From positions 22,133 to 86,132 of the forward strand of contig CAZQGS010000026.1 in assembly GCA_964593235.1 (NCBI GenBank): a DNA stretch of 64,000 bases, written 5' to 3'. Below are positions 318-34,543 of the stretch, one piece after another (within the stretch, counting starts at the first letter, position 1; every line of letters begins with the position of its first letter). A program made the translations under genes and the position numbers. The notes under the pieces were generated by a model. The model had not been told where the DNA came from. It made no database searches and saw only the letters and a list, made by a program, of their open reading frames with translations. The DNA is from an uncultured Gemmatimonadota bacterium (GTDB lineage Bacteria; JAAXHH01).

Positions 318-3013
<2,696 letters not shown>

Positions 3014-3085
3014 TCAATTGCCAACTGGGAGTCTAAAATTTATGGAAACGCCAAATTTATGGCATAACACGTTCAAGGGGAAAGT

Positions 3086-5569
3086 ATGGCGGTAGAACAA
3101 CACGATAATATTCAGCCCATTTTTATCGAAGACGAAATGAAAAGTTCTTATCTCGACTTCTCCATGAGCGTAAATCTGTCTCGGGCGATTCCAGATGTAC
3201 GGGACGGATTCAAGCCATCACAACGGCGTATACTTGTGGCGATGCGTGATCTGAACCTTACACCCAGCAGGCCCACCCGTAAATGCGCCAAAATCGTCGG
3301 GCAAACAATAGGTGATTACCATCCACATGGTGATCTTGCTGTTTATGATACCCTAGCTCGGATGGCACAGCCTTTTAGTATGCGCTATCCGATGGTTTTT
3401 GGCCAAGGGAATTTCGGGTCCATAGATGGCGATCCACCAGGAGCTATGCGTTACACTGAATCTAGAATGTCCCGTTTGGCTATTGAAATGATGGAGGATA
3501 TTGACAAAAACACAGTTAATTTCATGCCTAATTATGATGAATCTAAAGATGAGCCTACGGTATTGCCGGGGAAGTTTCCTAATCTTCTTTGTAACGGGTC
3601 TCTTGGTATCGGTGTTGGCATGGCTTCTAGTTTACCTTCTCATAATCTTAGTGAGGTAGTAGATGGAATTGTTGGGGTAATAGAAAATCCTGAGATATCG
3701 ATAGATGAAATCGCTGAGAAAATAAAAGGACCAGATTTTGCTACAGGAGCTATAATTTATGGTCGGAATGCAATACAAGAATACTTCAATACTGGTCGTG
3801 GCAAGGTTAAGGTCCGTGCAAGAACCCAAATCGAAACTCACGAACAAAACGAAAAAGAAACAATCGTCATAACCGAGATTCCTTATAAAGTTAACAAATC
3901 AACTCTGATTGAAAAAATTGCTGATCTAGTTCGTGAAAAGCAAATACTGGGAATTACAGATATCAGAGATGAGTCTGATCGATCTGGCCTCCGAATTGCT
4001 ATAGATGTACGAAGGGATATTCCAGCCAACATTATACTAAATCATCTTTTCAAAATGACTCCTCTCGAAACAACTATTGGGGTCACAATGTTGGCTTTGG
4101 TTGATGGTCGACCTAGGGTATTAAATATTAAGGAATGTATTCAACACTTTATTGACCACCGCCATGAAGTATTAGTCAGGCGTACATCTTTCGACCTTGA
4201 GAAAGCCGAACAACGTGCTCACATTGTTGAAGGTTTAAGGGTGGCTCTGGATAATGTGGATCGTGTTATCGAGATATTGCGAAGTTCTCAGACCGGCGAG
4301 GAAGCTATGACAGTTCTTTTGAGCGAATTTGGATTGTCACGGGCTCAGGTAGAAGCAATTCTAGATATGCGACTTCAGCGATTGACAGGTTTAGAAAGAA
4401 ATAAACTAGAGGACGAATACAATGAACTTGTCGCTCAAATTAGTGATTTCAAGGATATTCTATCTCAGTTGCCCCGCCGGATGCAAATTATAAAAGAAGA
4501 GATGATTGAACTTAAAGAAAAATATGGCGATGATAGAAGAACCGAATTAATCGATATAGAAGGTGATCTAAGTATTGAAGACTTAATAGCAGATGAGGAA
4601 ATGGTTATAACCATTTCTCACGCTGGTTACATCAAACGGATCCCCATGGATACTTATACGAGCCAAAATCGTGGTGGTAAGGGTATTACAGGAATGAAAA
4701 CGCGCGATGAAGATTTTGTAGAGCACCTGTTTTCTGCATCAACTCATTCGTATATACTGTTCTTTACAAACCGTGGTAAATGCTACTGGCTGAAGGTTTG
4801 GGAGATACCAGAAGCTGGACGAACTGCCCGTGGCAAAGCGATGGTGAATTTACTTGAACTTGGTCAGGGGGAAAGTATAGCAGCTTTCCTTCCAATTCGG
4901 ACCTTCGATGACGAACATTATATTATGATGGTTACACGAGGCGGGCTTGTGAAAAAGACCGTTCTTTCGGCTTATGGAAATCCTCGAAAGAACGGGATTG
5001 TTGCTTTGAATATCCTCGAAGGAGATGCACTTATCGAAGCATTATTAACTAGTGGAGATAATGACATTGTTATTGCTAGCCGTAATGGCCAAGCTGTTCG
5101 ATTCCACGAGGCTGATGTTCGGACAATGGGAAGAGGTGCCCAAGGTGTTAGGGGCATCCGGCTTGCAGAGGGAGATAGAGTCGTTGGAATGCTAGCTTCT
5201 GATCGGGATGCTACCTTGCTTTCCGTTACTGAAAATGGATATGGTAAAAGAACAGATATCGAAAATTATCGCTTAACCCGAAGAGCAAGCAAGGGCGTTA
5301 GTAACATCCGAACCAGTGAGCGGAATGGATTGGTCGTATCGATCCATGCAGTTGCTGACAAAGATGAACTTATGATCATTACTATGAATGGTCTGATTAT
5401 CCGTCTTTCAGTCAGTGACTTACGTCCTATAGGTAGAAATACCCAAGGTGTTAAATTGATAAACCTTGGTGAGGGAGACCGAGTAATAGATATTTCTAAG
5501 ATTACGCCCAATGAAGAAGAAAAATCAGAAGACATAGAAAACACTAATTCGTCAGAGCAAGCAGACTAA
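3086..5569 (+). CDS. gyrA: DNA gyrase subunit A
   Basis: 827 aa. N-terminal RAIPDVRDGFKPSQRRIL, QRDR-equivalent region, active-site Tyr context (AMRYTESRM), C-terminal beta-pinwheel repeats, acidic tail. Confidence 0.97.
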   Translation: MAVEQHDNIQPIFIEDEMKSSYLDFSMSVNLSRAIPDVRDGFKPSQRRILVAMRDLNLTPSRPTRKCAKIVGQTIGDYHPHGDLAVYDTLARMAQPFSMRYPMVFGQGNFGSIDGDPPGAMRYTESRMSRLAIEMMEDIDKNTVNFMPNYDESKDEPTVLPGKFPNLLCNGSLGIGVGMASSLPSHNLSEVVDGIVGVIENPEISIDEIAEKIKGPDFATGAIIYGRNAIQEYFNTGRGKVKVRARTQIETHEQNEKETIVITEIPYKVNKSTLIEKIADLVREKQILGITDIRDESDRSGLRIAIDVRRDIPANIILNHLFKMTPLETTIGVTMLALVDGRPRVLNIKECIQHFIDHRHEVLVRRTSFDLEKAEQRAHIVEGLRVALDNVDRVIEILRSSQTGEEAMTVLLSEFGLSRAQVEAILDMRLQRLTGLERNKLEDEYNELVAQISDFKDILSQLPRRMQIIKEEMIELKEKYGDDRRTELIDIEGDLSIEDLIADEEMVITISHAGYIKRIPMDTYTSQNRGGKGITGMKTRDEDFVEHLFSASTHSYILFFTNRGKCYWLKVWEIPEAGRTARGKAMVNLLELGQGESIAAFLPIRTFDDEHYIMMVTRGGLVKKTVLSAYGNPRKNGIVALNILEGDALIEALLTSGDNDIVIASRNGQAVRFHEADVRTMGRGAQGVRGIRLAEGDRVVGMLASDRDATLLSVTENGYGKRTDIENYRLTRRASKGVSNIRTSERNGLVVSIHAVADKDELMIITMNGLIIRLSVSDLRPIGRNTQGVKLINLGEGDRVIDISKITPNEEEKSEDIENTNSSEQAD

Positions 5570-6094: not shown

Positions 6095-6946
6095 ATGGAA
6101 ATAGGTATTGTATTGTCAAGGATCCGTAAGGATGAGAAACGACTGATTTCAGAGGCTAGTCATCGAGGATTCGGTGTTACAACTATTGACAACACTCAAC
6201 AGGTATTCAAACTGAATAGTTGTCCTGACAGTTTTGATGTAGTGCTAGAACGTTGTGTAGATCACCATAGGGCGGTTTATGTGCTAAGCTTATTCGACTA
6301 TTGGGGGATACCAACAGTGAACCAACAGTCCGTTGTTGAAACTTACGGAAATCGTTTGTTGACAAATCTGGCATTAAAAGACAATGGAGTACCTTTTCCT
6401 GAAGTCAGGTTAGCTTATACGCCAGGGTCTGCCTTAGAAGCTATGGAAACTATTGGATACCCTATTGTACTGAGGCCGGTTGAGGGATCAGGGAATCAAC
6501 TAGTCTCTCGTATCCAAGAAAAACATACGGCAGCCACTATCCTAGAGCATAAGAGGATTTTGGGTACCTATCATCATTCAATATTTTTTATTCAAAAATA
6601 TATTGAAAGCCCAGGCCATGATATCCGCGCATTCGTTGTTGGTGATCAAACAGTCGCTGCCATATCCGTATTAACCCACCACTGGATAGGATCAATTGCT
6701 GACGGTGGTCTAGTAGAGAACGAACCGGTTACAGAAGAATTAAATCAAATTGCTGTTTCTGCTGTTAAGGCTATTGGTGGGGGCATAGCTGTTGTTGATA
6801 TGATCCGTACAAAAACCCAGTGGTATGTTCAAGAGATGGGCCCACCAACAGGGCTGTCTGAAGCATCTGATGTTACGGGAGTTAATATACCCCAGAAAAT
6901 CATTGAATATGTGGCTAATATTGTGGAACAAGGAGGGAAAGTATAA
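6095..6946 (+). CDS. lysX: LysW--substrate ligase, ATP-grasp RimK/LysX family (LysX or ArgX paralogue 1)
   Basis: 283 aa, RimK-type ATP-grasp fold ([21 protein letters not shown]..., [10 protein letters not shown]). First enzyme gene after lysW. The stop overlaps the start of the next paralogue. Confidence 0.8.
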
Positions 6947-7785
6947 TGAAGATAGGCATGTTACTTTCTATTGTTTCCAAAGAACAGAAAATGTTATTTG
7001 AAGCTGCTAGCAAACGTGGTGTTTGTTTCGAAAGATTGGATGACCGGCGCCTCATATTTGACCTTGAGAATCAAAAGTATAATCATGATGTGATTCTTGA
7101 AAGGTGCATCAATCACTCAAGAGCCCTCTATTCTTTAAGAATACTTAATGCTAGCGGCATTAAAACTGTTAATTCGTATGATGTAGCGCGTATCTGTGGA
7201 AACAAATTTTTGACAACGATGGCATTGGTTAATAACAATGTTCCGACACCCAAGGCTTGTGTTGCTTTTACGGCGGAGTCTGCCCTTGATGCTATAGAAT
7301 CTATGGGATACCCAGTTGTGCTCAAACCACCCATAGGTTCCTGGGGTCGCCTAATCGCGCGGATTAATGACCGTAATGCAGCAGAATCGGTGCTCGAACA
7401 TAAGGAGACATTAGGATCTTTTCATCATTCAGTGTTTTACATTCAGGAGTACGTTGATAAACCAGGACGGGATATACGTTCCTTCGTAATTGACGGGCAG
7501 ACTATTTGTGCTATTTATCGTTATTCCGATCATTGGAAAACTAATACTGCTCTGGGAGGAACAGTAGCTGCTTGCCCAGTAGATGGAGATGTAGGAAAAT
7601 TGTCTATTCAGGCTGCCGAGGCAGTGGGCGGGGATGTTGTAGCTGTAGACCTGCTGGAATCTCCAGATGGTATAGTTGTCAACGAAGTTAATTATACAAT
7701 GGAATTTCGGAACAGTATACAACCTACCGGGGTAGATATTCCGGGACGAATTATCGATTATTTGATAAAGGTAGCTCAATCATGA
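6946..7785 (+). CDS. Second ATP-grasp LysX/ArgX-family ligase (paralogue 2)
   Basis: 279 aa, colinear with the previous protein ([21 protein letters not shown]..., [10 protein letters not shown]). Tandem duplicate. Two ligases with a single Z/Y/J/K set resembles the LysX+ArgX architecture. Confidence 0.8.
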
Positions 7786-8825
7786 TTAAAGTCTCTATCG
7801 TTGGTGCTTCTGGATACGGCGGCGGAGAGTTGTTACGTCTTCTTCTTGCTCACTCTGAAATAGAGATTCAGCAGGTTACTTCTGAATCGTTAGTTGGTAA
7901 ACCTGTTGGACGTTCTCATCCAAATCTACGTAGGCTTACTGACCTAAAATTCCATGCTATGGATGATTTAAAACCCTGTGACGTTATTTTTCTATGCCTA
8001 CCGCATGGGGAAGCTATGAAACAATGGGACTCGCTGTCTGGTCTTGCTGATCGTGTTATTGATCTAAGTGCCGATTTTCGCCTTCGCAATCCATTGGACT
8101 ACCCAATTTGGTACGGGCATGAACATACCAAGCCGGGAGTATTGAATCACTTTGTGTATGGTTTAGCCGAATTATACCGAGAAGAAATTAGGAATGCTGA
8201 ATTTGTGGCCTGTACGGGATGCTTAGCTGCTACAGCCATCCTATCTTTGGCGCCTTTGGTCAAGACTGGTAGTATCGATCCTTCAAGGTTATTTTTGGAA
8301 GGGAAAATTGGTTCGTCAGCAGGTGGTAATAAATCAGATCACTCCACTCACCATCCCGAGCGGAGTGGCTCTGTACGATCATTCAAGCCAACAGGCCATA
8401 GGCACACAGCGGAAGTAATACAGGAGTTAACTGTCGATGGGCAGGTTCCCCAGGTCCATTTTTCTGCGACAGCAATAGAAATGGTGCGAGGAATCCTGAT
8501 GACAAGCCATGTTTTTGTAGATAAGGATTTATCCGAAAGAGAAATTTGGGAGATTTACAGAGAAGTTTACGAAAACGAGCCTTTTATTCGTATTATTAAA
8601 GAACGGAATGGTATTTACCGATATCCCGATCCAAAAATCCTCTCAGGTACTAATTTTTGTGATATTGGATTTGAACGAGATAAGCACAGTGATCGTTTAG
8701 TAGTCCTAGGTGCCTTAGATAACCTAGTTAAAGGAGCTGCTGGACAGGCTGTTCAGGCTATTAATATAATGCATGGATGGGATGAGCAGACAGGTTTACA
8801 ATTTCCTGGGTTGCACCCTATATAG
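7782..8825 (+). CDS. lysY: [LysW]-aminoadipyl/glutamyl-phosphate reductase (ArgC/LysY family)
   Basis: 347 aa. [24 protein letters not shown](P)-binding N-terminus. A Cys is present in the region ([17 protein letters not shown]) where ArgC/LysY carry their catalytic Cys. ArgC-like C-terminus. Overlaps the upstream gene by 4 nt. Confidence 0.85.
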
Positions 8826-8831
8826 GAATTC

Positions 8832-10100
8832 ATGATGAACTACAAAGCACCTAGAGGCACCTACGATATCTTGCCCGAAGATCAATCCTATTGGCGTTAC
8901 GTGATCGAAACAACACATCGTGTTTGCCGGCTTTATGGTTACGAGCAAATAGATGTTCCAATATTCGAGCAGACGAACCTCTTCAAAAGGAGCGTTGGTG
9001 AATCCACAGATATTGTAGAAAAAGAGATGTATACCTTTGTTGATCGTAGTGATGAGAGTATGACTTTGCGTCCTGAATTAACTGCGGGCATCTGCCGAGC
9101 CTATGTTGAACGTAAACTTCATGGGCGGCCACAACCGTTAAAGTTTTTTACGATTGGCCCGGCGTTTAGGTATGAACGTCCTCAGGCTGGTCGTTATCGT
9201 CAGTTCTATCAGCTAGACGTTGAGGCTTTAGGTAGCCAGGATCCAGCTATAGACATAGAGATTATGCAAGTGGCATGGCAGATTTACGAGGAAATTGGTT
9301 TAGGTGGATTATCTTTCCAAGTTAATAGTACCGGATGTCCCGAATGCCGTCCAGGATATCTTAGCCTTCTTAAAGAATGGTACGAATCCCGTATATCAGG
9401 TCTTTGTCAAGACTGCCAGCGACGCTACGGACAGAATCTACTCAGATTGTTAGATTGTAAAAATGAAGCCTGCCGAGAAATATCTGATAGAGCTCCGAAG
9501 ATTACCGCTGCATTATGTGGCGACTGTGGCAATCATTTTGAAGAATTGAGATCTTATTTGGATATATTGAAACGTCCGTATGAGGTTAATCATCGGCTTG
9601 TTCGAGGATTAGACTACTATACAAAGACGGTATTTGAAGTCTGGGCCTCTGGCATTGGTGCTCAAAATGCGGTAAGTGGAGGTGGACGTTATGACGGCTT
9701 AGTTAAAGTGATAGGCGGTCCCGAAACCCCAGCAATAGGTTTTGCTTCGGGGATAGAACGTATTATCCTCGCAATGAAACAAGAAGGTATTATTCCTCCG
9801 GAACTGGCTAACCCAAAAGTTTTTATCGCTTACATTGGAACGGCTGCAAAATCAGCTGCTGTCCTTTTAGTGCAGGAACTTCGAAGTGGAGGAATCAGTG
9901 TGGCTGCTCTTTGGGATGATCGTAGTCTAAAATCTCAAATGAAGCAGGCAGATCGGGTTGGAGCAACATACACTGTAATCATAGGTAATAATGAAATAAC
10001 AAGTGGCAAATATATATTGCGAAGGATGGGAGAAAGCGCCCAGATTGTTTTAAGTCCTTCGGAAATTTTGCCAAGGTTAAAAGATGGAGATTTCTCATGA
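8832..10100 (+). CDS. hisS: Histidyl-tRNA synthetase (class II), embedded in the lys operon
   Basis: 422 aa. HisRS signature PRGTYDILPED near the N-terminus, class II motifs (TLRPELTAG, FRYERPQAGRYRQFYQ), HisRS-specific Cys-rich insertion, C-terminal anticodon-binding domain. Its stop overlaps the lysZ start (ATGA). Confidence 0.85.
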   Translation: MMNYKAPRGTYDILPEDQSYWRYVIETTHRVCRLYGYEQIDVPIFEQTNLFKRSVGESTDIVEKEMYTFVDRSDESMTLRPELTAGICRAYVERKLHGRPQPLKFFTIGPAFRYERPQAGRYRQFYQLDVEALGSQDPAIDIEIMQVAWQIYEEIGLGGLSFQVNSTGCPECRPGYLSLLKEWYESRISGLCQDCQRRYGQNLLRLLDCKNEACREISDRAPKITAALCGDCGNHFEELRSYLDILKRPYEVNHRLVRGLDYYTKTVFEVWASGIGAQNAVSGGGRYDGLVKVIGGPETPAIGFASGIERIILAMKQEGIIPPELANPKVFIAYIGTAAKSAAVLLVQELRSGGISVAALWDDRSLKSQMKQADRVGATYTVIIGNNEITSGKYILRRMGESAQIVLSPSEILPRLKDGDFS

Positions 10101-10894
10101 TCGTGATCAAAACAGGAGGGAGTAGAGGTATTAATATTGATTACGTTCTTGCGGATCTTGCTTTTCAAACAGAGCCACTTGTGTTTTTGCATGGGGCGTC
10201 TGACGAATTAAATCAAATATCCGAGCGGCTAGGTAAACCTCCTCGAATGGTCACATCGCCTTCTGGGTACACCAGTAGGTACACCGACTCAGGAACCCTT
10301 GATATTTTTAATATGGTATACTGTGGTAAAATAAACACTCGTATCGTTGAAAAACTTCACCAACTGGGGGTTAATGCTGTTGGACTAAGTGGTGTTGATG
10401 GTAGACTTCTTGAGGGTAAAAGAAAATCTACTGTCCGTATCATTGAGGAAGGGAAGAAGAAACTGCTTAGAAATGATTTTACGGGGCGTGTTGAAAAGGC
10501 GAACGTAAATCTTCTTACACTTCTTCTTGGCCAAGGTTATCTACCAGTCGTCAGTCCTCCGGCTATTAGTTATGAAGGTGAAATTATCAATGTCGACGGC
10601 GATAGGGCTGCTGCCGTGATAGCAGAGGGACTCGGAGCTGATAGGTTAATTATACTCTCTAATACACCAGGTTTTCTGAAAGATGCGGATGCCGAAGAGA
10701 CCTTAATACCACGGCTTAACCGAGATGATATTGACGATGTGATAAGGAAATATGCAAGAGGCCGGATGAAGAAGAAACTACTGGGTGCTCGGGAAGCCCT
10801 AGAGGCAGGTGTGGGTACGGTGATTCTTGGTGATGGTCGTATACCCAATCCAGTTACATTAGCTTTGCAGGGTAAGGGCACCGTAATTACGTAG
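10097..10894 (+). CDS. lysZ: [LysW]-aminoadipate/glutamate kinase (ArgB/LysZ amino-acid kinase family)
   Basis: 265 aa. MIVIKTGGS opening and GASDEL..., VVSP..NVDGDRAAAVIAEGLGADRLIILSNTPG AAK-family motifs. Confidence 0.85.
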   Translation: MIVIKTGGSRGINIDYVLADLAFQTEPLVFLHGASDELNQISERLGKPPRMVTSPSGYTSRYTDSGTLDIFNMVYCGKINTRIVEKLHQLGVNAVGLSGVDGRLLEGKRKSTVRIIEEGKKKLLRNDFTGRVEKANVNLLTLLLGQGYLPVVSPPAISYEGEIINVDGDRAAAVIAEGLGADRLIILSNTPGFLKDADAEETLIPRLNRDDIDDVIRKYARGRMKKKLLGAREALEAGVGTVILGDGRIPNPVTLALQGKGTVIT

Positions 10895-10956
10895 GGAAAA
10901 TAAAAATTAATGGTTGTATAGCATAAAGATTGGGATGATAACAGGGGGCAAAAGCC

Positions 10957-12150
10957 ATGATACAGTACAAGGAGATGGAAGATAAAGTCTCTATGGGAAT
11001 TTTGCCAAAGAGAGACGTCGTAATTGTCCGTGGGAAAGGTACCAGATTATGGGATACCGAAGGCAAGGAGTATATTGATTGTGTAGGAGGACATGGGACA
11101 GCGAATATCGGTCATAATCATCCGGTTGTTGTAGAGGCGTTGGTTCGTCAGGCGGAGCAACTTATGATATGTCCCGATATGTTTTATAATAATGTAAGGG
11201 CCAAATTAGTAACAACATTAGCCCAAGTAGCTCCGGCAGGACTAGACCGTCTTTATTTGTGTAACTCAGGGACAGAAGCGGTGGAAGCAGCATTGAAATT
11301 CGCTCGTGTGGCAACTAAGAGAACAGGAGTGATCGCAGCGCAAAGAGGTTTTCACGGGCGGACTTTTGGAGCTCTAAGTGCAACCTGGAATCCTAAATAT
11401 CGAAAGCCATTTCAACCTCTTGTACCAGGTTTCTCTCACGTAAAGTATAACGACATGCAGGCGATTGATTCTGCTATAGATGATGGCACAGCCGCCGTTA
11501 TTTTAGAAGTAGTTCAGGGAGAAGGTGGTGTGCGCCTAGGTACCGAAAGCTACTTAAAGAAAGTGGAAGCCCTTTGCCGAAACCGGGGTTCATTATTGAT
11601 ATTAGATGAAGTGCAAACAGGTTTTGGCAGAACAGGTACTATGTTTGCCTGCCAGCACTACGATATACAGCCAGATATTATCTGCGTTGCTAAAGCAATG
11701 GCAGGTGGATTGCCAGTAGGAGCGGTCCTCTGTTCTGATTTGGTTAAAGAAATTCCAACGATGTCTCACGGTAACACCTTTGGTGGTAGCCCTATTGTCT
11801 GCGCGGCTGCTTTGGGTACGTTGAGTGTACTACAAAACTCAGGGATAATCCAAAATGCCCGAGAGATGGGGATCTATTTTAGAGAACGACTTGAAACACT
11901 AGACCTCAGGATTATCCGAGAGATTCGAGGTCTAGGCCTTATGATTGGACTAGAACTGAAAAGCCGAGTTTCACCGGTATTGAAAGGTCTTATGGACCAT
12001 GGTATATTAGCTTTGCCAGCAGGCAACACAGTACTACGTTTCTTGCCACCTCTATCAATAACAGCAGATGACATTGATCAGGTCGTAGATGCTCTAAAAA
12101 TAGTACTGAAGCCACTGGATAAAATTTCAACAGAAGAATCCACAGAATAA
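10957..12150 (+). CDS. lysJ: Class III PLP aminotransferase (ArgD/LysJ family)
   Basis: 397 aa. GTEAVEAALKFAR, DEVQTGFGRTG, PLP-Lys region (ICVAKAMAGGLP), SHGNTFGGSP. Confidence 0.85.
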   Translation: MIQYKEMEDKVSMGILPKRDVVIVRGKGTRLWDTEGKEYIDCVGGHGTANIGHNHPVVVEALVRQAEQLMICPDMFYNNVRAKLVTTLAQVAPAGLDRLYLCNSGTEAVEAALKFARVATKRTGVIAAQRGFHGRTFGALSATWNPKYRKPFQPLVPGFSHVKYNDMQAIDSAIDDGTAAVILEVVQGEGGVRLGTESYLKKVEALCRNRGSLLILDEVQTGFGRTGTMFACQHYDIQPDIICVAKAMAGGLPVGAVLCSDLVKEIPTMSHGNTFGGSPIVCAAALGTLSVLQNSGIIQNAREMGIYFRERLETLDLRIIREIRGLGLMIGLELKSRVSPVLKGLMDHGILALPAGNTVLRFLPPLSITADDIDQVVDALKIVLKPLDKISTEESTE

Positions 12151-12202
12151 CTAGGATTAGACTGTTCTGTAGGTAAAGATCAATTTAGGGTAGGGAATAT
12201 AA

Positions 12203-13249
12203 ATGAGTGTTCAATGTGACGACCTGGACTTATTGCGTGGCCTAGTCGATCATTACAGTCCTTCTAGGCAAGAAGAAGATGCAGTATCTTTTCTAGTCGA
12301 ATCGATGGAACAGAGAGGTATAAATTCTTATATTGATGGGGCGGGAAATGCAGTTGGGGAAGTGGGTGATGGTTCCCCACATATTGCTCTCGTCGGGCAT
12401 ATAGATACTGTGAAGGGGATTATTCCCGTCCGAGAGAAATCTGGTCGTCTTTACGGTCGTGGAACAGTAGATGCTAAGGGTCCCCTCGCCACATTTGTGG
12501 CGGCCGTGTCTCGGTTTACTAAACTCGATCAAGGTAGGATTACAGTTGTAGGTGCTGTGGAAGAAGAGTGTCCGACATCACGAGGTGCCCGATATCTTGT
12601 TAATCAAATGAAACCAGATCATGTATTTATTGGTGAACCTAGCGGTTGGGATAGTATCACTATAGGATATAAGGGTATCGTTGGTTTCAATTTCAAGTTA
12701 AAACAATCTAATGCTCATTTTGCTGGCAATAATTTACGTTCGGGAGACAAAGCAATAACATTTTATAACAATCTTTTATCCTACCTTAACCAACATGAAA
12801 TCAAGAGTGAATTTGGATCTCCTCGACTTGAACTAAGGAGAATTAATACTCTTGATGAAGGGTTAACAGAAAATGTAGAGGCCTATTTTTCAGTGCGCAT
12901 TCCTCCTGGATATGGAGTGGAAAATCTTATTAACTTTATAGGAGTTCAGTCAGGAGATGCTGAAATAGAATGTGATCAGAAACTAGAGGGTATTATTGCG
13001 AAAAAAAATACTCCGCTAGTCCGGGCTTTGTTGCAAGGCATTCGTCAAGAGGGTGGGCAACCAACTTTCAAGAAAAAGACTGGCACTTCAGATATGTGTG
13101 TCATCGGTCCGGAATGGAAATGCCCCATCGTAGCATATGGTCCAGGAGATTCTAGTTTAGATCATACACCAGACGAACATATAATACTCGATGATTATCT
13201 TCGATCTATCCAAGTAATGACAAATGCGTTAAAATCCCTAATATTATGA
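12203..13249 (+). CDS. lysK: [LysW]-lysine/ornithine hydrolase, M20 (ArgE/DapE/LysK) family
   Basis: 348 aa. HIALVGHIDTV metal-binding motif, GRGTVDAKGPLA, M20 dimerisation-domain insertion. Last gene of the colinear block. Confidence 0.8.
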   Translation: MSVQCDDLDLLRGLVDHYSPSRQEEDAVSFLVESMEQRGINSYIDGAGNAVGEVGDGSPHIALVGHIDTVKGIIPVREKSGRLYGRGTVDAKGPLATFVAAVSRFTKLDQGRITVVGAVEEECPTSRGARYLVNQMKPDHVFIGEPSGWDSITIGYKGIVGFNFKLKQSNAHFAGNNLRSGDKAITFYNNLLSYLNQHEIKSEFGSPRLELRRINTLDEGLTENVEAYFSVRIPPGYGVENLINFIGVQSGDAEIECDQKLEGIIAKKNTPLVRALLQGIRQEGGQPTFKKKTGTSDMCVIGPEWKCPIVAYGPGDSSLDHTPDEHIILDDYLRSIQVMTNALKSLIL

Positions 13250-13324: not shown

Positions 13325-14545
13325 TTAAGTCCTAAGAATTAATTCTCCGATTTCCTTAAGTTGGCCTAAGTTTCTACATTCAAGAACATGGTCACAGTAT
13401 GGATGGTAGGTAGACATGACAGAATCATCGGTGTTCCAATATTGTTGAGGTTCAGGGTTCAGCCATATCATTTTGTGAACCCTGTTCTGTAACTCATCTA
13501 GAACCCAATCTTGGGGATCAAACCAGTTTGTCCGGGCGTCGCCGAGTATGACTAGTACAGTATTCTTAGATAGCGAAGGAAGATATTCGTCGTAGAACTG
13601 GTAAAAGGCCCTTCCAAAATCACTTAGTCCAAAAAAATTGAGCGTATGATCATTTTTAAAATTTTCGACAATTTCTTCAAATGTGTTGTGGTCAAAATTG
13701 TCCGTGACCTCTGTGATACGATCTACGAAAAGAAAACTACGGGCTCGACGGAATTGACTTTGCATTTCATGGACTAATTTTATAAAGAAACGGGCGACTT
13801 CCCAAACAGATCCTGAAACATCACATAATACAACCAATTCATTTTTCTTGATTTTCTGATGTTTGTGTATTATGTGAAAAGGCAGATTACCTGTGCGAAA
13901 ACTTCTTTGAATAGTTTTTTTAATATCGACTCTTCCATGGCCTGACTTTTTGAAGCGTAATGACTTACGTGTGACAAGATTTCGGGCTAAGTCTTCCACC
14001 GCGTCGTAGAGGTTTTCAATTTCACCTGATGGTAATTCCTGGTAAAGATCAATAGTATCGGAGCTTTTGTCCCTTTGCACTCCTGGTTCGGTGGCATTTT
14101 CTGAGGTTTGTTCACCCAAATTAATACGGGCTAGGATTTTCTTGAGGACATCATCTTCTGATTCTTGGCTATCAGAAGTCTCTTCGTTAGTCGAGGTATC
14201 ATTTTGTTTATCTTCGTTATCTGGGGTCCCATTTTCATCATTTTCTGAATGATTTTTAGAATCAGTATGATCTTCGGAACTTTGGTCTATGTCGTTTGGC
14301 AAATTATCACTGTCGTTATTTTGATCCTCTATCTCAACTAGGAAAAATTGTTCAAAAGCTTCTTCAAAAGTGGGGATATCCTCATTAGATTTTATCAAAG
14401 TAGTTCGGAGCGAGGTCTTGAATGTATGGCGTTCAATGAGGGGAGTATGCCTAAGCATTTCAGCTGCATCGAGGGTTTCTGCCATAGAGATGCGAATACC
14501 AGACTGCCGGAGCATTCTGACAAATTCAACGAGACGACAGATCAT
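13325..14545 (-). CDS. VWA-domain protein, CoxE-like (MoxR partner), with acidic low-complexity linker
   Basis: 406 aa. C-terminal VWA with MIDAS-like LVVLCDVSGSV. About 90-aa D/E/N/S-rich region (NDSDNLPNDIDQSSEDHTDSKNHSENDENGTPDNEDKQNDTSTNEETSDSQESEDD). Overlaps the MoxR gene by 20 nt. Confidence 0.75.
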   Translation of the reverse strand: MICRLVEFVRMLRQSGIRISMAETLDAAEMLRHTPLIERHTFKTSLRTTLIKSNEDIPTFEEAFEQFFLVEIEDQNNDSDNLPNDIDQSSEDHTDSKNHSENDENGTPDNEDKQNDTSTNEETSDSQESEDDVLKKILARINLGEQTSENATEPGVQRDKSSDTIDLYQELPSGEIENLYDAVEDLARNLVTRKSLRFKKSGHGRVDIKKTIQRSFRTGNLPFHIIHKHQKIKKNELVVLCDVSGSVWEVARFFIKLVHEMQSQFRRARSFLFVDRITEVTDNFDHNTFEEIVENFKNDHTLNFFGLSDFGRAFYQFYDEYLPSLSKNTVLVILGDARTNWFDPQDWVLDELQNRVHKMIWLNPEPQQYWNTDDSVMSTYHPYCDHVLECRNLGQLKEIGELILRT

Positions 14546-15575
14546 TGTAATTTTCTTTCATGATCCGATCAATATCTTCTCTATCCTTCATAAGTACGTT
14601 CAAGGTACTTGAAAGAATATCGCGCGACAAATTTTCTGCATTAAGGACCACTAATGCCATTGCCCAATCAATTGTTTCCGCAATGCTTGGTGGTTTGCGG
14701 ACGTTCAGTTTTCTAATTTTTTGAACAAAACGGACTACTTGGTTCGCTAGATCTTCGTTAAGGCTTGGGACTTTGCAAAGAACAATCCGAGTTTCCTGGT
14801 CAAACGGAGGATAGTCTATATAGAGATACAGACATCGTCTTCTCAAGGCTTCAGAAAGACTACGATTAGCGTTGCTTGTCAATACTACCAGTGGCCTTTG
14901 AGCAGCAGTCAACGTCCCTAGTTCTGGTATGCTCACCTGAAAATCACTGAGTATTTCCAGGAGGAAACTCTCAAATTCATCGTCAGCTCGATCTATTTCA
15001 TCTATTAGCAAAACAACGGGTTCTGTCGAAAGTATAGCTTCTAGTAGGGGGCGCGGGAGCAGAAAATATCTTGAAAAGAAAGCTTTCCCTTCCTGGTTTA
15101 GTGTTTCCACCGCATTAGCAATAGTCTCAGTCTCGTTTACTAGGTCCCCTATGCGGTCTTTTAGGATCTGTGTGTAAAGTAATTGTTTTGTATATTCCCA
15201 TTCATAAAGTGCCTTGGATTCATCCAGGCCTTCGTAACATTGTAATCTAATTAAACGTCGTCCAAGGGTTACCGAAAGCGTTTTTGCAATCTCGGTTTTG
15301 CCAACCCCAGGGGGTCCCTCAACTAGTAGTGGTTTCTCTAGGCGCTCCATTAAAAAAATTGGCGTAGCCAGATTTGAATCACAGATGTAACCGTGCGATT
15401 CAAACTGCTGTAAAACATCTTTGGCAGATTTGAAAGAAGCCATACTACTCCTGAAAGGATAACTAACCTGTGGGATTATAACGGTCAAAACAAAGGAATT
15501 ACAGTACCTCATTCTCTGAGGATAATAACTGCTCGTGCATCGCCCAAAATTACCAATTATATGACATAATGTCAA
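14526..15575 (-). CDS. MoxR-family AAA+ ATPase (CoxD-like)
   Basis: 349 aa. Walker A LVEGPPGVGKT, Walker B VVLLIDEIDRA, MoxR-type helix-2 insert and sensor regions. Operonic with the VWA protein. Confidence 0.85.
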   Translation of the reverse strand: MTLCHIIGNFGRCTSSYYPQRMRYCNSFVLTVIIPQVSYPFRSSMASFKSAKDVLQQFESHGYICDSNLATPIFLMERLEKPLLVEGPPGVGKTEIAKTLSVTLGRRLIRLQCYEGLDESKALYEWEYTKQLLYTQILKDRIGDLVNETETIANAVETLNQEGKAFFSRYFLLPRPLLEAILSTEPVVLLIDEIDRADDEFESFLLEILSDFQVSIPELGTLTAAQRPLVVLTSNANRSLSEALRRRCLYLYIDYPPFDQETRIVLCKVPSLNEDLANQVVRFVQKIRKLNVRKPPSIAETIDWAMALVVLNAENLSRDILSSTLNVLMKDREDIDRIMKENYNDLSSR

Positions 15576-15734: not shown

Positions 15735-16196
15735 ATGAGGAAAAAACAGAAAAAATTTTTAGTTGGTTTTGGGGTTGTAATAGTAGCGATAGGATACCTG
15801 ATCTATACTGGGGTAACCGATGCTACGATGTATTACTTAACTGCGAGTGAACTAGACACGGCTATAACAGAAGGGAATGTTGACTACGGCGAAAATATGC
15901 GGTTGCACGGTAGGGTATTAACTGGATCTATCGAAAAGGGTGAGGTGGGTTCCTTGCAAATCAGCTTTATAGCACATGAGGGGGGCACACAGATCCCTAT
16001 CGTCTACACTGGGGTGGTTCCTGACACGTTTAGAGACGATTCTGAAGTGGTTTTGGAGGGTGGTTACGGGCAGAATGGTACATTTACAGCTCACACATTG
16101 TTTGCCAAGTGCCCATCTAAGTATGAAAGTGACCAAGGATATGGCCAATATGAGAACCTCAAACCAATTCCGCCAGAATCCTCGACTAAGTCTTGA
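15735..16196 (+). CDS. ccmE: Cytochrome c-type biogenesis haem chaperone CcmE, variant with Cys-type CXXXY haem-binding motif
   Basis: 153 aa. N-terminal TM anchor, OB-fold core (VVPDTFRDDSEVVLEG). The haem-binding segment is LFAKCPSKYES (Cys126/Tyr130; Cys codon at 16110-16112) in place of canonical AKHDE-x-Y. ccmABCD lies downstream. Confidence 0.8.
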   Translation: MRKKQKKFLVGFGVVIVAIGYLIYTGVTDATMYYLTASELDTAITEGNVDYGENMRLHGRVLTGSIEKGEVGSLQISFIAHEGGTQIPIVYTGVVPDTFRDDSEVVLEGGYGQNGTFTAHTLFAKCPSKYESDQGYGQYENLKPIPPESSTKS

Positions 16197-16248
16197 ACAG
16201 ATTAGCTCAGAATTACGGTGTTGTTTACTAGAGGAGTAACATCTGGCT

Positions 16249-16848
16249 ATGACATTGTTCGCTTGTGGACTGCTTACATTGGGCGTCCTTGCTTTTATGA
16301 TCGTTCCAATGTTGGAGGGATCATCTCAACGTCGTCCTTGGGCTGTTCGATCTCGGCAGGATGATTTGCTTAAAAAGAAAGATTTTATCTATGCGTCCAT
16401 TCGTGAACTAGACATTGATTTTAATATGGGTAAACTGGCTGCTGAAGATCACAAGTTACTACAGCAAGAGTATATTAATGAGGCATCGGAAGTGCTAGAT
16501 GAACTGGACCAATTTGTTGAGATTGATATGCCCATTGAGGAAAAAATAGAAAAAGAAGTGTTAGATCTCCGAAATAGGAACCCCAAAAGTCCTATCAAAT
16601 CAGACAATAAAGAACCAACACTGGACCATATTGATGGATTAGATGAAACGGAAACTAGTAGTACAGGGAAGGTTGTTCTGTCTGAAGGTCAGCTTTTATG
16701 TAGACATTGTGGCAAACATAACGAGGAATATTCCAATTTCTGTGTCGAATGTGGAACTTCCTTAGAAACATACACTTGTGGAGGTTGTGGAAAGGAAAAT
16801 CAACCTTCAGCTAATTTCTGTTCAGAGTGCGGAGAGAAATTGGGTTGA
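16249..16848 (+). CDS. Membrane-anchored protein with C-terminal double zinc ribbon (CxxC-x16-CxxC-x9-CxxC-x15-CxxC); unknown function
   Basis: 199 aa. N-terminal TM helix (LLTLGVLAFMIVPML), coiled/acidic middle, C-terminal CRHCGK...CVECG...CGGCGK...CSECG. Lies in the ccmE-ccmA interval. Confidence 0.5.
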   Translation: MTLFACGLLTLGVLAFMIVPMLEGSSQRRPWAVRSRQDDLLKKKDFIYASIRELDIDFNMGKLAAEDHKLLQQEYINEASEVLDELDQFVEIDMPIEEKIEKEVLDLRNRNPKSPIKSDNKEPTLDHIDGLDETETSSTGKVVLSEGQLLCRHCGKHNEEYSNFCVECGTSLETYTCGGCGKENQPSANFCSECGEKLG

Positions 16849-16858
16849 TGGAGATCTT

Positions 16859-18025
16859 ATGAAGTGCCAATGGTATTCTAGCCCTTCGGGGCTTTTTATT
16901 TATTATATCAATATTCTGGTTTGCATTTTCTGTTGGAGTGGGGTGACAAAAGCTCAAGAAACGGGAAGCATTGACCTTGTAGTTTTAAATAAAACTACTG
17001 GCCTGCCAATAGCAGGGCACGAGCTGACATTGTTACGTCACAATAGTGAAGAGGAACAAGAAGAGACTCTTTTAAAAGTTGTAACAGATAGTAACGGACA
17101 GTATAAATTTGCTGGCCTACCAGCCGATGAATCCCACTACGTCATCGTTACTCGTTACCTCGAAATACCTTACCTTACAGAGCATATTACATTGGGCCCC
17201 GGGGAACAGCAAACAATAGTACTCGAAGTTTACGATATTACAACAAACGAAAATGAGTTAATTCATAGTGCTATTCATTTGGTAATAGAGACAACTCCAG
17301 ATATTCTTAATATTATGGAAATTATTGTTTTGGATAACAAAAGTAATATGACTTTTGCTCCACCACCCAATTCAGGCTTGGGCCTTATCTACTCTCTTCC
17401 TTCTGCCGCATTTGGTCTCCAACCTATGGTCCAGGGTCTTAGGCATACTGATCGGGGACTTTTATTTTCAGCGCCAGTAAAACCTGGCCCTGAACGAATC
17501 ATTTATACCTACAGCCTTGATAGGACTTCAGTAGACCACAAATTTGTAAGACAGATGGATTACAATATTAGTAGGGTCCAGGTATTGGTTTCCCCAAGTA
17601 CCGAGATTGTAACAGCTGTAAATCTGACCAACGATGGAGAACAACGAATTGGTGATAAGGATTATCTTTTACTCTCGAATCGTGTTGGCCTCCAGAAAGG
17701 GATGTCAGTAGAGGTTGCATTCCCTTATATATTGACTTGGCAGGTAGCTCTGAAGTGGGGAATGCTTGGGTTTGTTATATTAATTTTAATTGGTGGCATC
17801 TTTGTTGGGATTCGAATTAAGCCAGAAAAGTTGAAAAATTTTGATAACACAACCGGTGTCGAGCCAAAAAATAAGCGAAAATACACCGCGATCCTCCATG
17901 CTATAGCTAATTTGGATGATCAAAAAGACGCTGGAATATTAGACGCTAGGACATATAGAAGTCGTAGAGATGGTTTGCAAAAAAGGGCCTTAAGGCTTCA
18001 TCAAAATGGAAGTAAAAGTGAATAA
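16859..18025 (+). CDS. Secreted/membrane protein with CarboxypepD_reg-like beta-sandwich and C-terminal TM anchor; unknown function
   Basis: The ORF track starts at 16778 (overlapping the previous gene by 70 nt). The ATG at 16859 gives a signal-peptide-like N-terminus (MKCQWYSSPSGLFIYYINILVCIFCWSGVTKAQ) and no overlap. Contains the ...VVTDSNGQYKFAGLP motif typical of CarboxypepD_reg domains and a TM helix near the C-terminus (MLGFVILILIGGIFVGI). Its 3' end overlaps ccmA by 20 nt. Confidence 0.5.
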   Translation: MKCQWYSSPSGLFIYYINILVCIFCWSGVTKAQETGSIDLVVLNKTTGLPIAGHELTLLRHNSEEEQEETLLKVVTDSNGQYKFAGLPADESHYVIVTRYLEIPYLTEHITLGPGEQQTIVLEVYDITTNENELIHSAIHLVIETTPDILNIMEIIVLDNKSNMTFAPPPNSGLGLIYSLPSAAFGLQPMVQGLRHTDRGLLFSAPVKPGPERIIYTYSLDRTSVDHKFVRQMDYNISRVQVLVSPSTEIVTAVNLTNDGEQRIGDKDYLLLSNRVGLQKGMSVEVAFPYILTWQVALKWGMLGFVILILIGGIFVGIRIKPEKLKNFDNTTGVEPKNKRKYTAILHAIANLDDQKDAGILDARTYRSRRDGLQKRALRLHQNGSKSE

Positions 18026-18728
18026 TCAATTTACTCCTAGTATAAGATTACAAAACCTAACTAAGGTATACGGTCGTTTTAGGGCATTACGTGGAGTAAA
18101 TCTGGAGATTGCACCAGGAACCTTTTTGGCTCTTTTTGGTCCCAATGGCGCTGGGAAGTCCACCTTACTTAATATGATCGCTGGCCTTATTCAGCCATCT
18201 CGTGGAGCGTTGTTCTTGGATGATATCAATGTTACCCATGGTCGAGACGAGTGCTTAGGAAGCCAAGTTGGAGTATTATCATATGATACTTATCTATACG
18301 ATGAATTGACCGTTAATGAAAATCTCCAATTTTATGGGAAATTATACGACATTGTAGATCCTAGTAAAAAGATAGAAGAAATGTTAGTTGCGGTAGGAAT
18401 GTCTAGCAGAAGTGAAAGCCGGGTTTATACTCTTTCTCACGGAATGCGGCAGCGAGTAGCTATAGCAAGAGCACTTCTGCATGATCCAGATATTTTGTTA
18501 CTGGATGAACCTTATTCTGGGTTGGACCAAGATGCCCTAGTCACCTTAAAGGCAATCCTGACAGCTTATAATAAGACAGTTATTTTAGTAACTCATGACT
18601 TGGATCGGGGACTTGAATTAGCTGATCGAGTCGTTATTTTAAACCGTGGATATGTCGTTTTTGATACCCCCAAGAACGGTTTGACCAGTGATCAGATTAA
18701 ATGTTTCTATAAGGAGCATTCTGTTTAA
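18006..18728 (+). CDS. ccmA: Haem exporter ABC ATPase CcmA
   Basis: 240 aa. Walker A GPNGAGKST, LSHGMRQR signature, Walker B ILLLDEP. Followed by ccmB/ccmC. Confidence 0.85.
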   Translation: MEVKVNNQFTPSIRLQNLTKVYGRFRALRGVNLEIAPGTFLALFGPNGAGKSTLLNMIAGLIQPSRGALFLDDINVTHGRDECLGSQVGVLSYDTYLYDELTVNENLQFYGKLYDIVDPSKKIEEMLVAVGMSSRSESRVYTLSHGMRQRVAIARALLHDPDILLLDEPYSGLDQDALVTLKAILTAYNKTVILVTHDLDRGLELADRVVILNRGYVVFDTPKNGLTSDQIKCFYKEHSV

Positions 18729-18750
18729 GCCTATAAAGAGAACAATCTGA

Positions 18751-19431
18751 ATGAGATATTTACTTGCTAAATCATGGCAAATATACCGAAAAGATATGAT
18801 AGTAGAATACCGAACGCGCGAGCGTGTTGTGACTATGTTTGTTTTTTCGTTAATTGTAATGGTCATTTTTAATTTTGCTTTTAACATTGGGTCCAACTTT
18901 ATAGAAAGGGTTGTACCTGGAATGATCTGGGTCGCATTTTCTTTTGCAGGAATGCTGTGTGCGAGTCGATGTTTCGCTTCTGAAAAAGATCGAGCTACTT
19001 TTGATGGCCTACTCCTTGCTCCCATAGATAGAGGATCTATATTTCTTGGTAAATTATTTGGTAATATTACCCTTATTAGTTTAGTCCAATTGGCAGTACT
19101 TCCCCTATTTATTATTTTTTTCAACATGACAATCTTCCCTTATTTAACTAAACTGTTAGTTATATTTTTCTTGGGAACAATTGGATTTTCATCAATTGCC
19201 ACGCTGTTTGCAGCTGTGGCTATCAATACAAGAATGCGGGATGTTATGTTGCCAGTTTTACTGCTACCTGTGGCATCACCTATTTTAATTGCCTTGGTAG
19301 AGACAACAAGGACAACTTTTGAGGGTGGAGACTGGCAGGATATGACAAACTGGATAAGATTACTTTCGGTATTCACAGTCGTTTTTTTGGTAGCGTCGGT
19401 CATGTTGTTCGAGTATATCCTGGAGGAATGA
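18751..19431 (+). CDS. ccmB: Haem exporter membrane protein CcmB
   Basis: 226 aa, six predicted TM helices. CcmB-like ...FASEKDRATFDGLLLAPIDRGSIFLGK... segment. Confidence 0.8.
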   Translation: MRYLLAKSWQIYRKDMIVEYRTRERVVTMFVFSLIVMVIFNFAFNIGSNFIERVVPGMIWVAFSFAGMLCASRCFASEKDRATFDGLLLAPIDRGSIFLGKLFGNITLISLVQLAVLPLFIIFFNMTIFPYLTKLLVIFFLGTIGFSSIATLFAAVAINTRMRDVMLPVLLLPVASPILIALVETTRTTFEGGDWQDMTNWIRLLSVFTVVFLVASVMLFEYILEE

Positions 19432-19434
19432 ACC

Positions 19435-20157
19435 ATGGCAGAATTAACAACTCGTTTGCGCATAACACCGTTCGGAGTTATTTGTCTCGTTGGATTAATT
19501 ATATCGTTGTACCTTTCATTAATTTGGGCACCCAGGGAGCGGGTTATGGGGGACGTGCAGCGGATAATGTATTTCCATGTTGCTACAGCATGGATTGCAG
19601 AGTTAGCTTTTCTTTTAGTGGGTATTTCGAGTATTATTTATCTGTGGCTTAGAGAACGTAAATGGGATATTGTGGCTTATAGTGCTGCCGAAGTGGGCTT
19701 TGTATTTTGCTGTTTCGTAATGATAACTGGACCAATCTGGGGGAAACCAGTCTGGGGGACTTGGTGGACATGGGATCCACGTCTCACGTTTTCAATGATA
19801 TTGTGGCTTATATATGTAGGTTACTTAATGCTTCGGGTTTATGGTGACGATATCCCTCAGGTGAAAACCTTTCTTGCAGTACTTGGCATATTAGGTACTT
19901 TAGACATCCCGTTTATTCATTTCGCTACAATGTGGTGGCGGGGGTTACATCCCGATTCTCTAGTTATGAGCGAGGAAGGATTGGGGGCAGGGATGGAAGT
20001 TGATATGCGCATTGCTCTGGCTGTGTCGGCTATTGTTTTTACCTTGTTTTTTTTCTATCTTATGGGACGTCGAATGGCCTTGGAACGTTTACGAGATGAA
20101 ACCGAAGATCTGCGAGATCGTTTAGAATATATGAATAATGATAATATCAGAAATTAA
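19435..20157 (+). CDS. ccmC: Haem lyase/exporter component CcmC
   Basis: 240 aa. Tryptophan-rich WWD motif GKPVWGTWWTWDPRLT and conserved His in flanking loops. Confidence 0.85.
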   Translation: MAELTTRLRITPFGVICLVGLIISLYLSLIWAPRERVMGDVQRIMYFHVATAWIAELAFLLVGISSIIYLWLRERKWDIVAYSAAEVGFVFCCFVMITGPIWGKPVWGTWWTWDPRLTFSMILWLIYVGYLMLRVYGDDIPQVKTFLAVLGILGTLDIPFIHFATMWWRGLHPDSLVMSEEGLGAGMEVDMRIALAVSAIVFTLFFFYLMGRRMALERLRDETEDLRDRLEYMNNDNIRN

Positions 20158-20234
20158 TTTGTAGTTCAAAGATATCAGGAATCATTTTTGTTTAACAGTC
20201 ACCAAGGATAAAATGTTTAAAGGAGTTAATAGTT

Positions 20235-20396
20235 TTGGATCAAAATTTCTGGTATCTATTTTCTGCTTATACCTTAATATGGGTTGGACTTTTCGTTTAC
20301 CTTTTCACCTTAGCAAGTAGAGAGAAAAAGTTAGAGACAGAAGTGGTCCAACTAAAGAAGTTATTAGAAGAGTTGGAGAAAAAATTTAAAGAGTAG
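20235..20396 (+). CDS. ccmD: CcmD-like small membrane protein (TTG start; absent from ORF track)
   Basis: 53 codons, LDQNFWYLFSAYTLIWVGLFVYLFTLASREKKLETEVVQLKKLLEELEKKFKE: one TM helix then a charged tail, the CcmD architecture. AAGGAG RBS 9 nt upstream of the TTG. Directly follows ccmC. Confidence 0.55.
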   Translation: MDQNFWYLFSAYTLIWVGLFVYLFTLASREKKLETEVVQLKKLLEELEKKFKE

Positions 20397-23362: not shown

Positions 23363-24637
23363 CTATGTTTTCCGTTTCTTTTTCTTTGCTGCCGGGAAGA
23401 GAACATTATTTAGAATAAGGCGGTATCCAGGGGAGTTTTTGTGGAGACTAAGATTTGTTGGGGGGTCGCCTACGAGATGTTCTTCATCTTCTGGATCGTG
23501 CCCTCCGTAAAATGTGAAAGTTCCCGCTCCGTAGTTCCCATGTATATACTTGATGTAGTCAGTCTCCGATTCCTTAGCCAGAACTACTGTCGTAGGTTTA
23601 AGGACCTGTCTACTGAAAGTGGTAGATAGTCCATAAAAACCAGCAATATAGTTTACGTGGTTTTGTGTAAGCATCGACGGAACAGGGTCATATTTAGCCG
23701 AAAAATCAAAAAGAGTAAATGGACCGGTTGGTATCTTAGTAGCGTTAACCTGGTTGACATCAATATTCGAAAAGGAACCGATAAAAGGGTTTAATTGTAG
23801 AGTAAAATCTTTAAAAGCAAAAGTTTGATCAAATTCCAACTTAGATTGGGCATCCGGATCAATAGGAGTATGATCGTATTCTGGTGCAACTATGTCGGTA
23901 TGATAGGAGGATAGAGCGATTTCTATGGTTTCTGTTGCAGCACACATTGCAAATAAAAAACCGCCGTTCCCCACATATTTTTGAATAGATCGTGCAACTG
24001 CTTTTTTTAATTCGGCAACTGTAGGATATCCCTGGTCCCTTGCTAGTGTTTCATCAGTCAGTTGCTGCTGTTGGTACCAAGGCATTCTGTGATAGCTGTA
24101 AAATTTGCTATATTGGCCAGTGAAATCTTCGTGGTGAAGATGTAACCAATCGAATTGATTCAGTTTCCCACCCAGTACCTCTTTGTCAAAGATGGTTTGG
24201 TACGGTACCTCAGCATATTTCAACGCCATGGTTACAGCGTCATCCCATGGGCGCTTATCAGGGCGAGTATACACTGCTATTTTGGGTACTTTTTCTAGTA
24301 TTACGCGGTCCATATTGTTGTCTTCAATAAGATCGTAAATCTGAGTTAACTCTGCTCCACTAAGGATTTTAAAACTAACACCTCGTAAATAACATGAGCG
24401 AGCCCGGTCAGTTGTTGGGTCCATAATAAATGAACCACCACGGTAGTTTAGTAGCCATTCGACGGTATAACCTTTTTCTAAAGCCTGAAAAGCAATGCCA
24501 TAAGCTTTGAGATGATCCTGCTGCTCCAAGTCCATTGGTATTAGTATCTTTTGAGCACTAGTGGTAAGCGGTACTATACAAAATCCCACAAATAAGAGAA
24601 TGAGTTTAGACATTTCTACTTCCCTAAGGTATGCCAA
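23363..24637 (-). CDS. Secreted protein of unknown function (signal peptide; possible class-I glutamine-amidotransferase-like/ThuA-like fold)
   Basis: 424 aa. MSKLILLFVGFCIVPLTTSAQ signal peptide (start probably at the internal MSKL). GGFLFAMCAATE nucleophile-elbow-like segment. Lys-rich C-terminus. Confidence 0.4.
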   Translation of the reverse strand: MAYLREVEMSKLILLFVGFCIVPLTTSAQKILIPMDLEQQDHLKAYGIAFQALEKGYTVEWLLNYRGGSFIMDPTTDRARSCYLRGVSFKILSGAELTQIYDLIEDNNMDRVILEKVPKIAVYTRPDKRPWDDAVTMALKYAEVPYQTIFDKEVLGGKLNQFDWLHLHHEDFTGQYSKFYSYHRMPWYQQQQLTDETLARDQGYPTVAELKKAVARSIQKYVGNGGFLFAMCAATETIEIALSSYHTDIVAPEYDHTPIDPDAQSKLEFDQTFAFKDFTLQLNPFIGSFSNIDVNQVNATKIPTGPFTLFDFSAKYDPVPSMLTQNHVNYIAGFYGLSTTFSRQVLKPTTVVLAKESETDYIKYIHGNYGAGTFTFYGGHDPEDEEHLVGDPPTNLSLHKNSPGYRLILNNVLFPAAKKKKRKT

Positions 24638-34476: not shown

Positions 34477-34495
34477 AGTTAATATAGAAAGAAAA

Positions 34496-34515: not shown

Positions 34516-34543
34516 AGGTCAAAGAAATATCTAAGGAGTTTTC

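Follow-up and report, generated by a model that had tools for sequence, protein, structure and literature searches.

A predicted Cys-type (System I*) haem chaperone CcmE encoded with ccmABCD in an uncultured marine bacterial lineage

The analysed window, a stretch of DNA of 64,000 nucleotides, carries at 15735-20396 an operon of seven co-directional genes, which are separated by short gaps or overlap one another and are arranged in the order ccmE, zinc-ribbon gene, 388-aa gene, ccmA, ccmB, ccmC and ccmD. The first gene, ccmE (15735-16196, forward strand), starts with ATG and encodes a Cys-type haem chaperone of 153 aa. On the basis of hydropathy and an AF2 model, this protein consists of an N-terminal membrane anchor (approximately residues 9-30), a periplasmic OB-fold (residues 55-124) and a C-terminal haem-binding tail. 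The haem-binding motif AKCPSKY (16104-16124, forward strand) occupies residues 124-130, with Cys126 encoded by TGC at 16110-16112 and Tyr130 by TAT at 16122-16124. Cys126 is the single Cys of the protein, and inspection of the tail for His revealed none. Scanning for promoters and terminators gave a result no better than that on shuffled sequence.

The remaining genes of the operon also lie on the forward strand. The zinc-ribbon gene (16249-16848) encodes a membrane protein of 199 aa with matches to Pfam DZR and Zn_Ribbon_1, and is followed by the 388-aa gene (16859-18025, with the start at 16859 according to the gene calls), for which a weak match to CarboxypepD_reg fell under the Pfam cut-off. 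The ABC ATPase of the haem-delivery complex is encoded by ccmA (18006-18728; PF00005, 121 bits), which lies directly upstream of ccmB and keeps this position in related loci. The ABC membrane subunit is encoded by ccmB (18751-19431; PF03379, 109 bits; TIGR01190 under its cut-off), and ccmC (19435-20157) was recognised by PF01578 and TIGR01191. The last gene, ccmD (20235-20396), encodes a protein of 53 aa with one TM helix, which scored 43.4 bits against TIGR04391 (CcmD_alt_fam) at a cut-off of 24. CcmC was aligned with E. coli CcmC (7f02_C) at an E value of 2.7e-24; its WWD motif (WGKPVWGTWWTWDPRLT) is conserved, and the periplasmic His ligands in MYFHVA and PFIHFA are both kept. Since ccmABCD and ccmE stand together in one operon and the CcmC ligands are intact, the part of System I that delivers haem is complete, and it looks functional as judged from the encoded sequences. 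An identical or near-identical operon with intact CcmE was found on at least 24 metagenome contigs, and the synteny holds in relatives at 60-75% identity. Immediately upstream of ccmE, a divergent pair (13325-15575, reverse strand) encodes a CoxE-like VWA protein and a MoxR/CoxD-like AAA ATPase; this pair was also observed in L007, L008, L010 and the P0022 contig, at CcmE identities down to approximately 60%.

The original prediction was that this open reading frame encodes a CcmE with a Cys-type CXXXY motif, and the analysis bears this out. The translated ORF matched the Pfam CcmE model PF03100 at 86.1 bits (E 2.3e-24, cut-off 24.6), the motif core was invariant among the aligned homologues described below, and the genomic partners ccmABCD follow in the same operon. 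Every score against the NCBIfam equivalog CcmE models was under its cut-off (best 73 versus 126), which is expected because the subfamily is divergent. The AF2 model of CcmE had a mean pLDDT of 87.7 and showed a helix at residues 3-30, the strands of an OB-type barrel at residues 55-124 and the last beta-strand at residues 117-124, with Cys126 located two residues past this final strand, directly behind the barrel. The top four Foldseek matches of the model in the PDB (8ce8_E, 1lm0, 1sr3 and 1j6q) were all CcmE, and the match to Desulfovibrio vulgaris CcmE (2kct) had an rmsd of 1.8 Å over 79 columns with approximately 33% identity across the OB domain. The model and the Foldseek matches thus present the CcmE arrangement of a membrane anchor, a periplasmic OB barrel and a haem residue right after the barrel.

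The equivalence of AKCPSKY to the canonical HxxxY segment, which had likewise been claimed for Cys126 and Tyr130, was confirmed by alignment. HMMER pairwise alignments with E. coli CcmE (8ce8_E and 1sr3) and Shewanella CcmE (1j6q) placed 'lfakCpskY' over 'vlakHdenY', and the alignment with D. vulgaris CcmE (2kct) placed KCP over KCP. In E. coli numbering, Cys126 thus takes the place of His130, and Tyr130 that of Tyr134, the axial ligand. The His of canonical System I is accordingly missing from the position of E. coli His130, where Cys126 stands instead, and AKCPSKY presents the Cys in place of the haem-binding His that characterises System I*, together with the CPSKY that is typical of it. 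Residues K125-C126-P127-S128-K129-Y130 were unchanged in an alignment of 21 homologues with identities as low as 32%; on the evidence of this alignment, the conserved KCPSKY block goes far past a chance CxxxY. Degeneracy of this copy was also checked. The dN of ccmE against relatives was 0.16-0.27 with saturated dS, and with dN this low at saturated synonymous sites, ccmE is under purifying selection and is not a decaying copy.

KCPSKY was present in all 120 homologue clusters listed by a cluster search that works by common 5-residue words and is thereby biased towards KCPSKY. A metagenome variant, P0023, shared 99% identity with the query over its first 63% and then continued in an alternative forward frame (window 15976-16239) in which the haem motif is missing; it is a lone cluster from one 2.9-kb metagenome contig and probably represents an assembly or sequencing frameshift. 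When one genome was scanned for each GTDB species, at least 600 stretches matched, and at least 595 of them were confirmed as Cys-type ccmE relatives. According to their record titles, the best 80 of these at least 595 loci belonged to Acidobacteriota, Latescibacterota, Gemmatimonadota, Dehalococcoidia, Zixibacteria, Deferribacteres, Spirochaetes, Aerophobetes, Eisenbacteria and Actinomycetes. The closest species representatives among the matches listed were MAGs labelled Gemmatimonadota or Latescibacterota at 70-74% identity, and the species of the window is therefore not among them.

A CcmE with Cys in place of His was described in 2006 by Allen et al., and the corresponding pathway is named System I*. 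CPSKY was the majority motif of the variant, occurring in 25 of 36 genomes, in the survey of Stevens et al. (2011, PMC3601427). The view that the variant chemistry is rare is overstated, given at least 595 KCPSKY loci in many phyla and a motif that already predominated in 2011. The CcmE studied here is thus an already known variant that environmental genomes frequently carry. The finding holds but is a fairly unremarkable one, as a further uncultured marine lineage with System I* has a small impact alone. The main interest lies in the conserved accessory genes and in the fact that ccmF and ccmH are not linked to the operon in this clade.

The second half of the pathway was searched for around the operon. 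No ccmF, ccmH, ccmG (thioredoxin-like) or ccdA was found in the 64-kb window or in the 10 kb beyond either end (approximately 84 kb in total), no CXXCH occurred in ORFs of at least 80 aa in the window, and no CXXCH protein was encoded in the 10-kb flanks. One flank holds dnaA-dnaN-recF, and the opposite flank holds housekeeping genes. The steps that follow haem delivery are accordingly an assumption. In total, 91 loci were annotated with custom HMMs, comprising 80 from the species-genome scan, 10 from contigs and the window itself. Gene neighbourhoods were counted in 57 species loci in which 7 kb or more of sequence follows ccmE, and which were drawn from the 80 most query-like loci and are not a random sample. 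The usual gene order was ccmE-ccmF-ccmH-zinc-ribbon gene-(388-aa gene)-ccmA-ccmB-ccmC-ccmD. Adjacent to the Cys-type ccmE, ccmF was present in 48 of the 57 loci, ccmH in 36, the zinc-ribbon gene in 53 and the 388-aa gene in 26. The cluster is divided into two parts in some Latescibacterota (L061, L064, L070 and L089).

It had also been proposed that the Cys-type motif accompanies a System I lacking CcmH. These counts contradict that generalisation, as does a sister clade of the window's clade, in which ccmH lies beside ccmE; lack of CcmH belonged to the first description of System I*, but according to the 2011 review it is no characteristic feature (PMC3601427). The presence of CcmH in most of dozens of phylogenetically diverse Cys-type loci, together with the recurrence of the two accessory genes there, is the more useful comparative result of this analysis. 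The window's clade comprises the window, L001-L008 and L011-L018, and neither ccmF nor ccmH occurs in its locus. In the sister clade (L010; L019 from Zixibacteria; the P0018 and P0022 contigs), ccmH comes directly after ccmE and the other genes are those of the window's clade; the CcmH proteins of this sister clade scored 48-64 bits against Pfam at a threshold of 25. Compared with the usual order, the locus has lost both ccmF and ccmH in the window's clade, and ccmF only in the sister clade (L010 and L019). The canonical CcmH motif is LRCxxC; the CcmH of Cys-type clusters (L010:10437-10931 and L009:12498-12989) carries an unusual Cys-rich motif, ELICYCGC... or ELACQCGGC....

When the sister-clade CcmH was used as a query, 18 clusters were recovered, all at approximately 49% identity or more, and none of them was on the chromosome-size contigs of the window's clade. 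This result is weakly suggestive of ccmH loss in the window's clade within a search reaching approximately 49% identity, and genome-wide absence of CcmH in this organism is plausible. A corresponding CcmF search with the L009 protein against a collection of 5.8 billion proteins was uninformative, its top 120 matches being filled by other lineages at 49-56% identity. A stand-alone ccmF from Latescibacteria (P0205) illustrates that ccmF can be unlinked from ccmE; it could not be assigned to the window's clade.

The two accessory proteins encoded between ccmE and ccmA share a helical motif. The zinc-ribbon protein begins with a TM helix in N-out orientation (residues 1-19), continues with a CcmI-like helical motif on the cytoplasmic side and has two zinc ribbons in its C-terminal part; across its family, the basic cytoplasmic motif reads approximately LxxKDxxYxxIRELxxDxxMGKLxxxD[H/Y], and the number of zinc ribbons varies between lineages from zero to two. 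The N-domain of the protein matched TIGR03142, the N-terminal domain model of CcmI, at 17.4 bits (E 0.0043), which is under the cut-off of 29.3, and the same model was matched by 17 of 20 family members, with a best E value of 1e-6. With a single TM helix, no TPR and a score under the cut-off, the protein is not a full CcmI; as far as the sequence comparison indicates, it resembles the N-terminal module of CcmI, and we read it as a truncated CcmI analogue.

The 388-aa protein is organised as a signal/anchor, a beta-rich periplasmic part of approximately 270 aa, a TM helix (residues 302-320) and a cytoplasmic helical hairpin. Comparison of its tail with the N-domain of the zinc-ribbon protein by hhalign gave a probability of 97.3% and an E value of 2e-11, identifying a homologous motif, and TIGR03142 was matched by 7 of 15 tails of the 388-aa family. 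A single-sequence AF2 prediction had an overall pLDDT of 42, and its usable parts were the TM helix and the C-terminal hairpin (hairpin pLDDT 72-95). The family has 1488 representative homologues at E values of 1e-3 or below, no dedicated model for it was found in Pfam or NCBIfam, and the papers searched contained no link between CcmI and a zinc ribbon. A role for this protein as a CcmF replacement was considered and rejected, since a single TM helix accompanies the signal/anchor and the protein has neither a conserved His or Cys nor a WWD-like motif.

The working hypothesis is that the zinc-ribbon and 388-aa proteins, which share the hairpin, constitute a split and rearranged CcmI analogue or adaptor. 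The "compensatory features" of System I* are said in reviews to be missing, and the near-universal zinc-ribbon protein together with the frequent periplasmic protein of approximately 390 aa would be testable candidates for them. A broader proposal, which we regard as improbable, is that the ccm operon has shed ccmF and ccmH in the marine clade studied here, whose members carry the labels Latescibacterota or Gemmatimonadota, and that the two proteins form a split, permuted replacement of CcmI. If it were true, the split replacement would handle apocytochrome or couple the cytoplasmic state to haem delivery, and in the extreme version a clade without any CcmF or CcmH would mature cytochromes c by a reduced set of components.

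We estimate a probability of roughly 0.85 that ORF 15735-16196 is a working System I* CcmE, in which Cys126 is predicted to be loaded by CcmABCD, with Tyr130 as a ligand, and haem to be passed to a CcmF encoded elsewhere. What the analysis shows directly is that the protein belongs to the CcmE family, that its motif stands at the expected position and is conserved, that ccmE lies in a ccm operon and that CcmC retains its ligands. In the proposed mechanism, CcmC would hold the exported haem by its WWD motif and two histidines. CcmE would then dock, and Cys126, in the flexible tail behind the OB-barrel, would attach to a haem vinyl group, presumably as a thioether. ATP hydrolysis by CcmA(B), with the help of CcmD, would free holo-CcmE, with Tyr130 as the axial iron ligand. 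Holo-CcmE would deliver haem to a CcmF-type lyase, which is expected from an unlinked gene elsewhere in the genome, and from there haem would reach CXXCH apocytochromes. The zinc-ribbon and 388-aa proteins would probably form a CcmI-like adaptor; their roles, as well as the existence of CcmF elsewhere, are predictions.

The covalent Cys126-haem bond is expected by analogy with Desulfovibrio and Methanosarcina. The D. desulfuricans operon expressed in E. coli produced holocytochromes c without CcmH or CcmG, and its CcmE-haem linkage was covalent (PMC3601427); in M. acetivorans, both the attachment of haem and the stability of the protein depended on the CXXXY cysteine C120 (PMC9084895). In vitro, unlike the D. 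desulfuricans protein, D. vulgaris CcmE (2KCT) bound ferric haem non-covalently via a Cys, C127 (2013 review, PMC3884852), so covalent bonding may not extend to every Cys-type CcmE. On this model, Cys126 would bind haem non-covalently through its thiolate to the iron, and CcmE would carry haem reversibly, without passing through a thioether; the difficulty of breaking a thioether bond again speaks for such a carrier (Stevens et al., PMC3601427). We nevertheless consider it improbable, since the D. vulgaris binding was performed without the loading machinery, whereas loading by CcmABCD in vivo gave haem-staining bands for the CcmE of D. desulfuricans (in E. coli) and M. acetivorans (PMC3601427, PMC9084895), and Tyr130, the expected iron ligand, is conserved in the 21-homologue alignment. 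Even less likely is that the operon of this clade is a stand-alone CcmABCDE module for haem export and chaperoning in a genome without ccmF and ccmH, where attachment would proceed via System II or the accessory proteins, or CcmE would serve a non-cytochrome acceptor. Such a module would agree with the lack of ccmF and ccmH from the approximately 84 kb around the operon and with the restriction of missing adjacent ccmF, among the 57 loci, to the window's clade (7 loci), L019 and L030. It would also agree with the sister-clade CcmH query, which had no match on the chromosome-size contigs of the window's clade, and with the CcmF query, whose top 120 matches did not include the clade's large contigs. 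However, the CcmF list was saturated by other lineages and speaks for neither side, the CcmH query reached relatives of at least approximately 49% identity only, ccmF is unlinked from ccmE elsewhere as well (L010, L019 and L093), and the 388-aa protein has none of the conserved residues or motifs looked for in a CcmF substitute. In addition, no CcmE is known to occur without a CcmF.

The least likely alternative, which we consider extremely improbable, is that this ccmE is a degenerate paralogue while a canonical His-type ccmE elsewhere in the genome is active. Apart from the frameshifted metagenome variant P0023, no support for it was found, and that single cluster on one contig stands against intact CcmE on at least 24 contigs. 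Further arguments against it are the invariant motif, the low dN, the intact operon and the synteny kept across clades, and Cys was found in every listed relative down to 32% identity. The preferred reading thus remains that of a working System I* CcmE.

Compared with known systems, this CcmE is similar to the System I* of D. desulfuricans and D. vulgaris in having Cys at the haem position followed by Pro and in sharing the OB-fold (2KCT), and these systems are likewise bacterial, with ccmD and a CcmI-type accessory protein (PMC3601427). Unlike in Desulfovibrio, ccmF lies outside the operon here, the OB-domain identity is limited to approximately 33%, the CcmI-like protein is truncated and carries zinc ribbons, and a periplasmic 388-aa protein is added. 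The CXXXY motif is shared with M. acetivorans CcmE, whose C120 is experimentally needed for haem attachment (PMC9084895); archaeal systems are without CcmD, CcmH and CcmI (PMC9084895), whereas ccmD and a CcmI-like gene are present here. The fold, membrane anchor, Tyr ligand and CcmABCD partners are those of E. coli CcmE (1SR3, 8CE8), from which the protein differs in having Cys instead of His, and Cys and His are not interchangeable in either CcmE system (PMC9084895, PMC3601427). The first TM helix and the helical motif on the cytoplasmic side are common to the zinc-ribbon protein and the N-terminal domain of CcmI/CycH (TIGR03142), and the motif also occurs in the 388-aa tail; unlike CcmI/CycH, the zinc-ribbon protein has zinc ribbons in place of a second TM helix and a periplasmic TPR domain.

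Several other features were observed in the window. At 635-5569, gyrB and gyrA directly follow dnaA-dnaN-recF-dciA (L092); the window therefore borders a replication origin, and the ccm operon lies approximately 20 kb from dnaA. A LysW/LysX-type amino-group-carrier biosynthesis cluster occupies 6095-13249 (forward strand), with hisS inserted in the middle, and its genes encode two RimK-like ligases, a semialdehyde dehydrogenase, an amino-acid kinase, an aminotransferase and an M20 peptidase. The ORFs at 31132-33588 (forward strand, 818 aa) and 23363-24637 (reverse strand, 424 aa) had no Pfam match at an E value of 1e-5 or below, and related loci carry a gene of similar size (416-419 aa), also without a Pfam match, in the corresponding position. 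A LexA-regulated mutagenesis cassette was located at 33862-39845 (forward strand), and it consists of lexA, a 211-aa gene in an imuA-like position, an imuB-like Y-family polymerase gene and a dnaE2-like gene for Pol III alpha.
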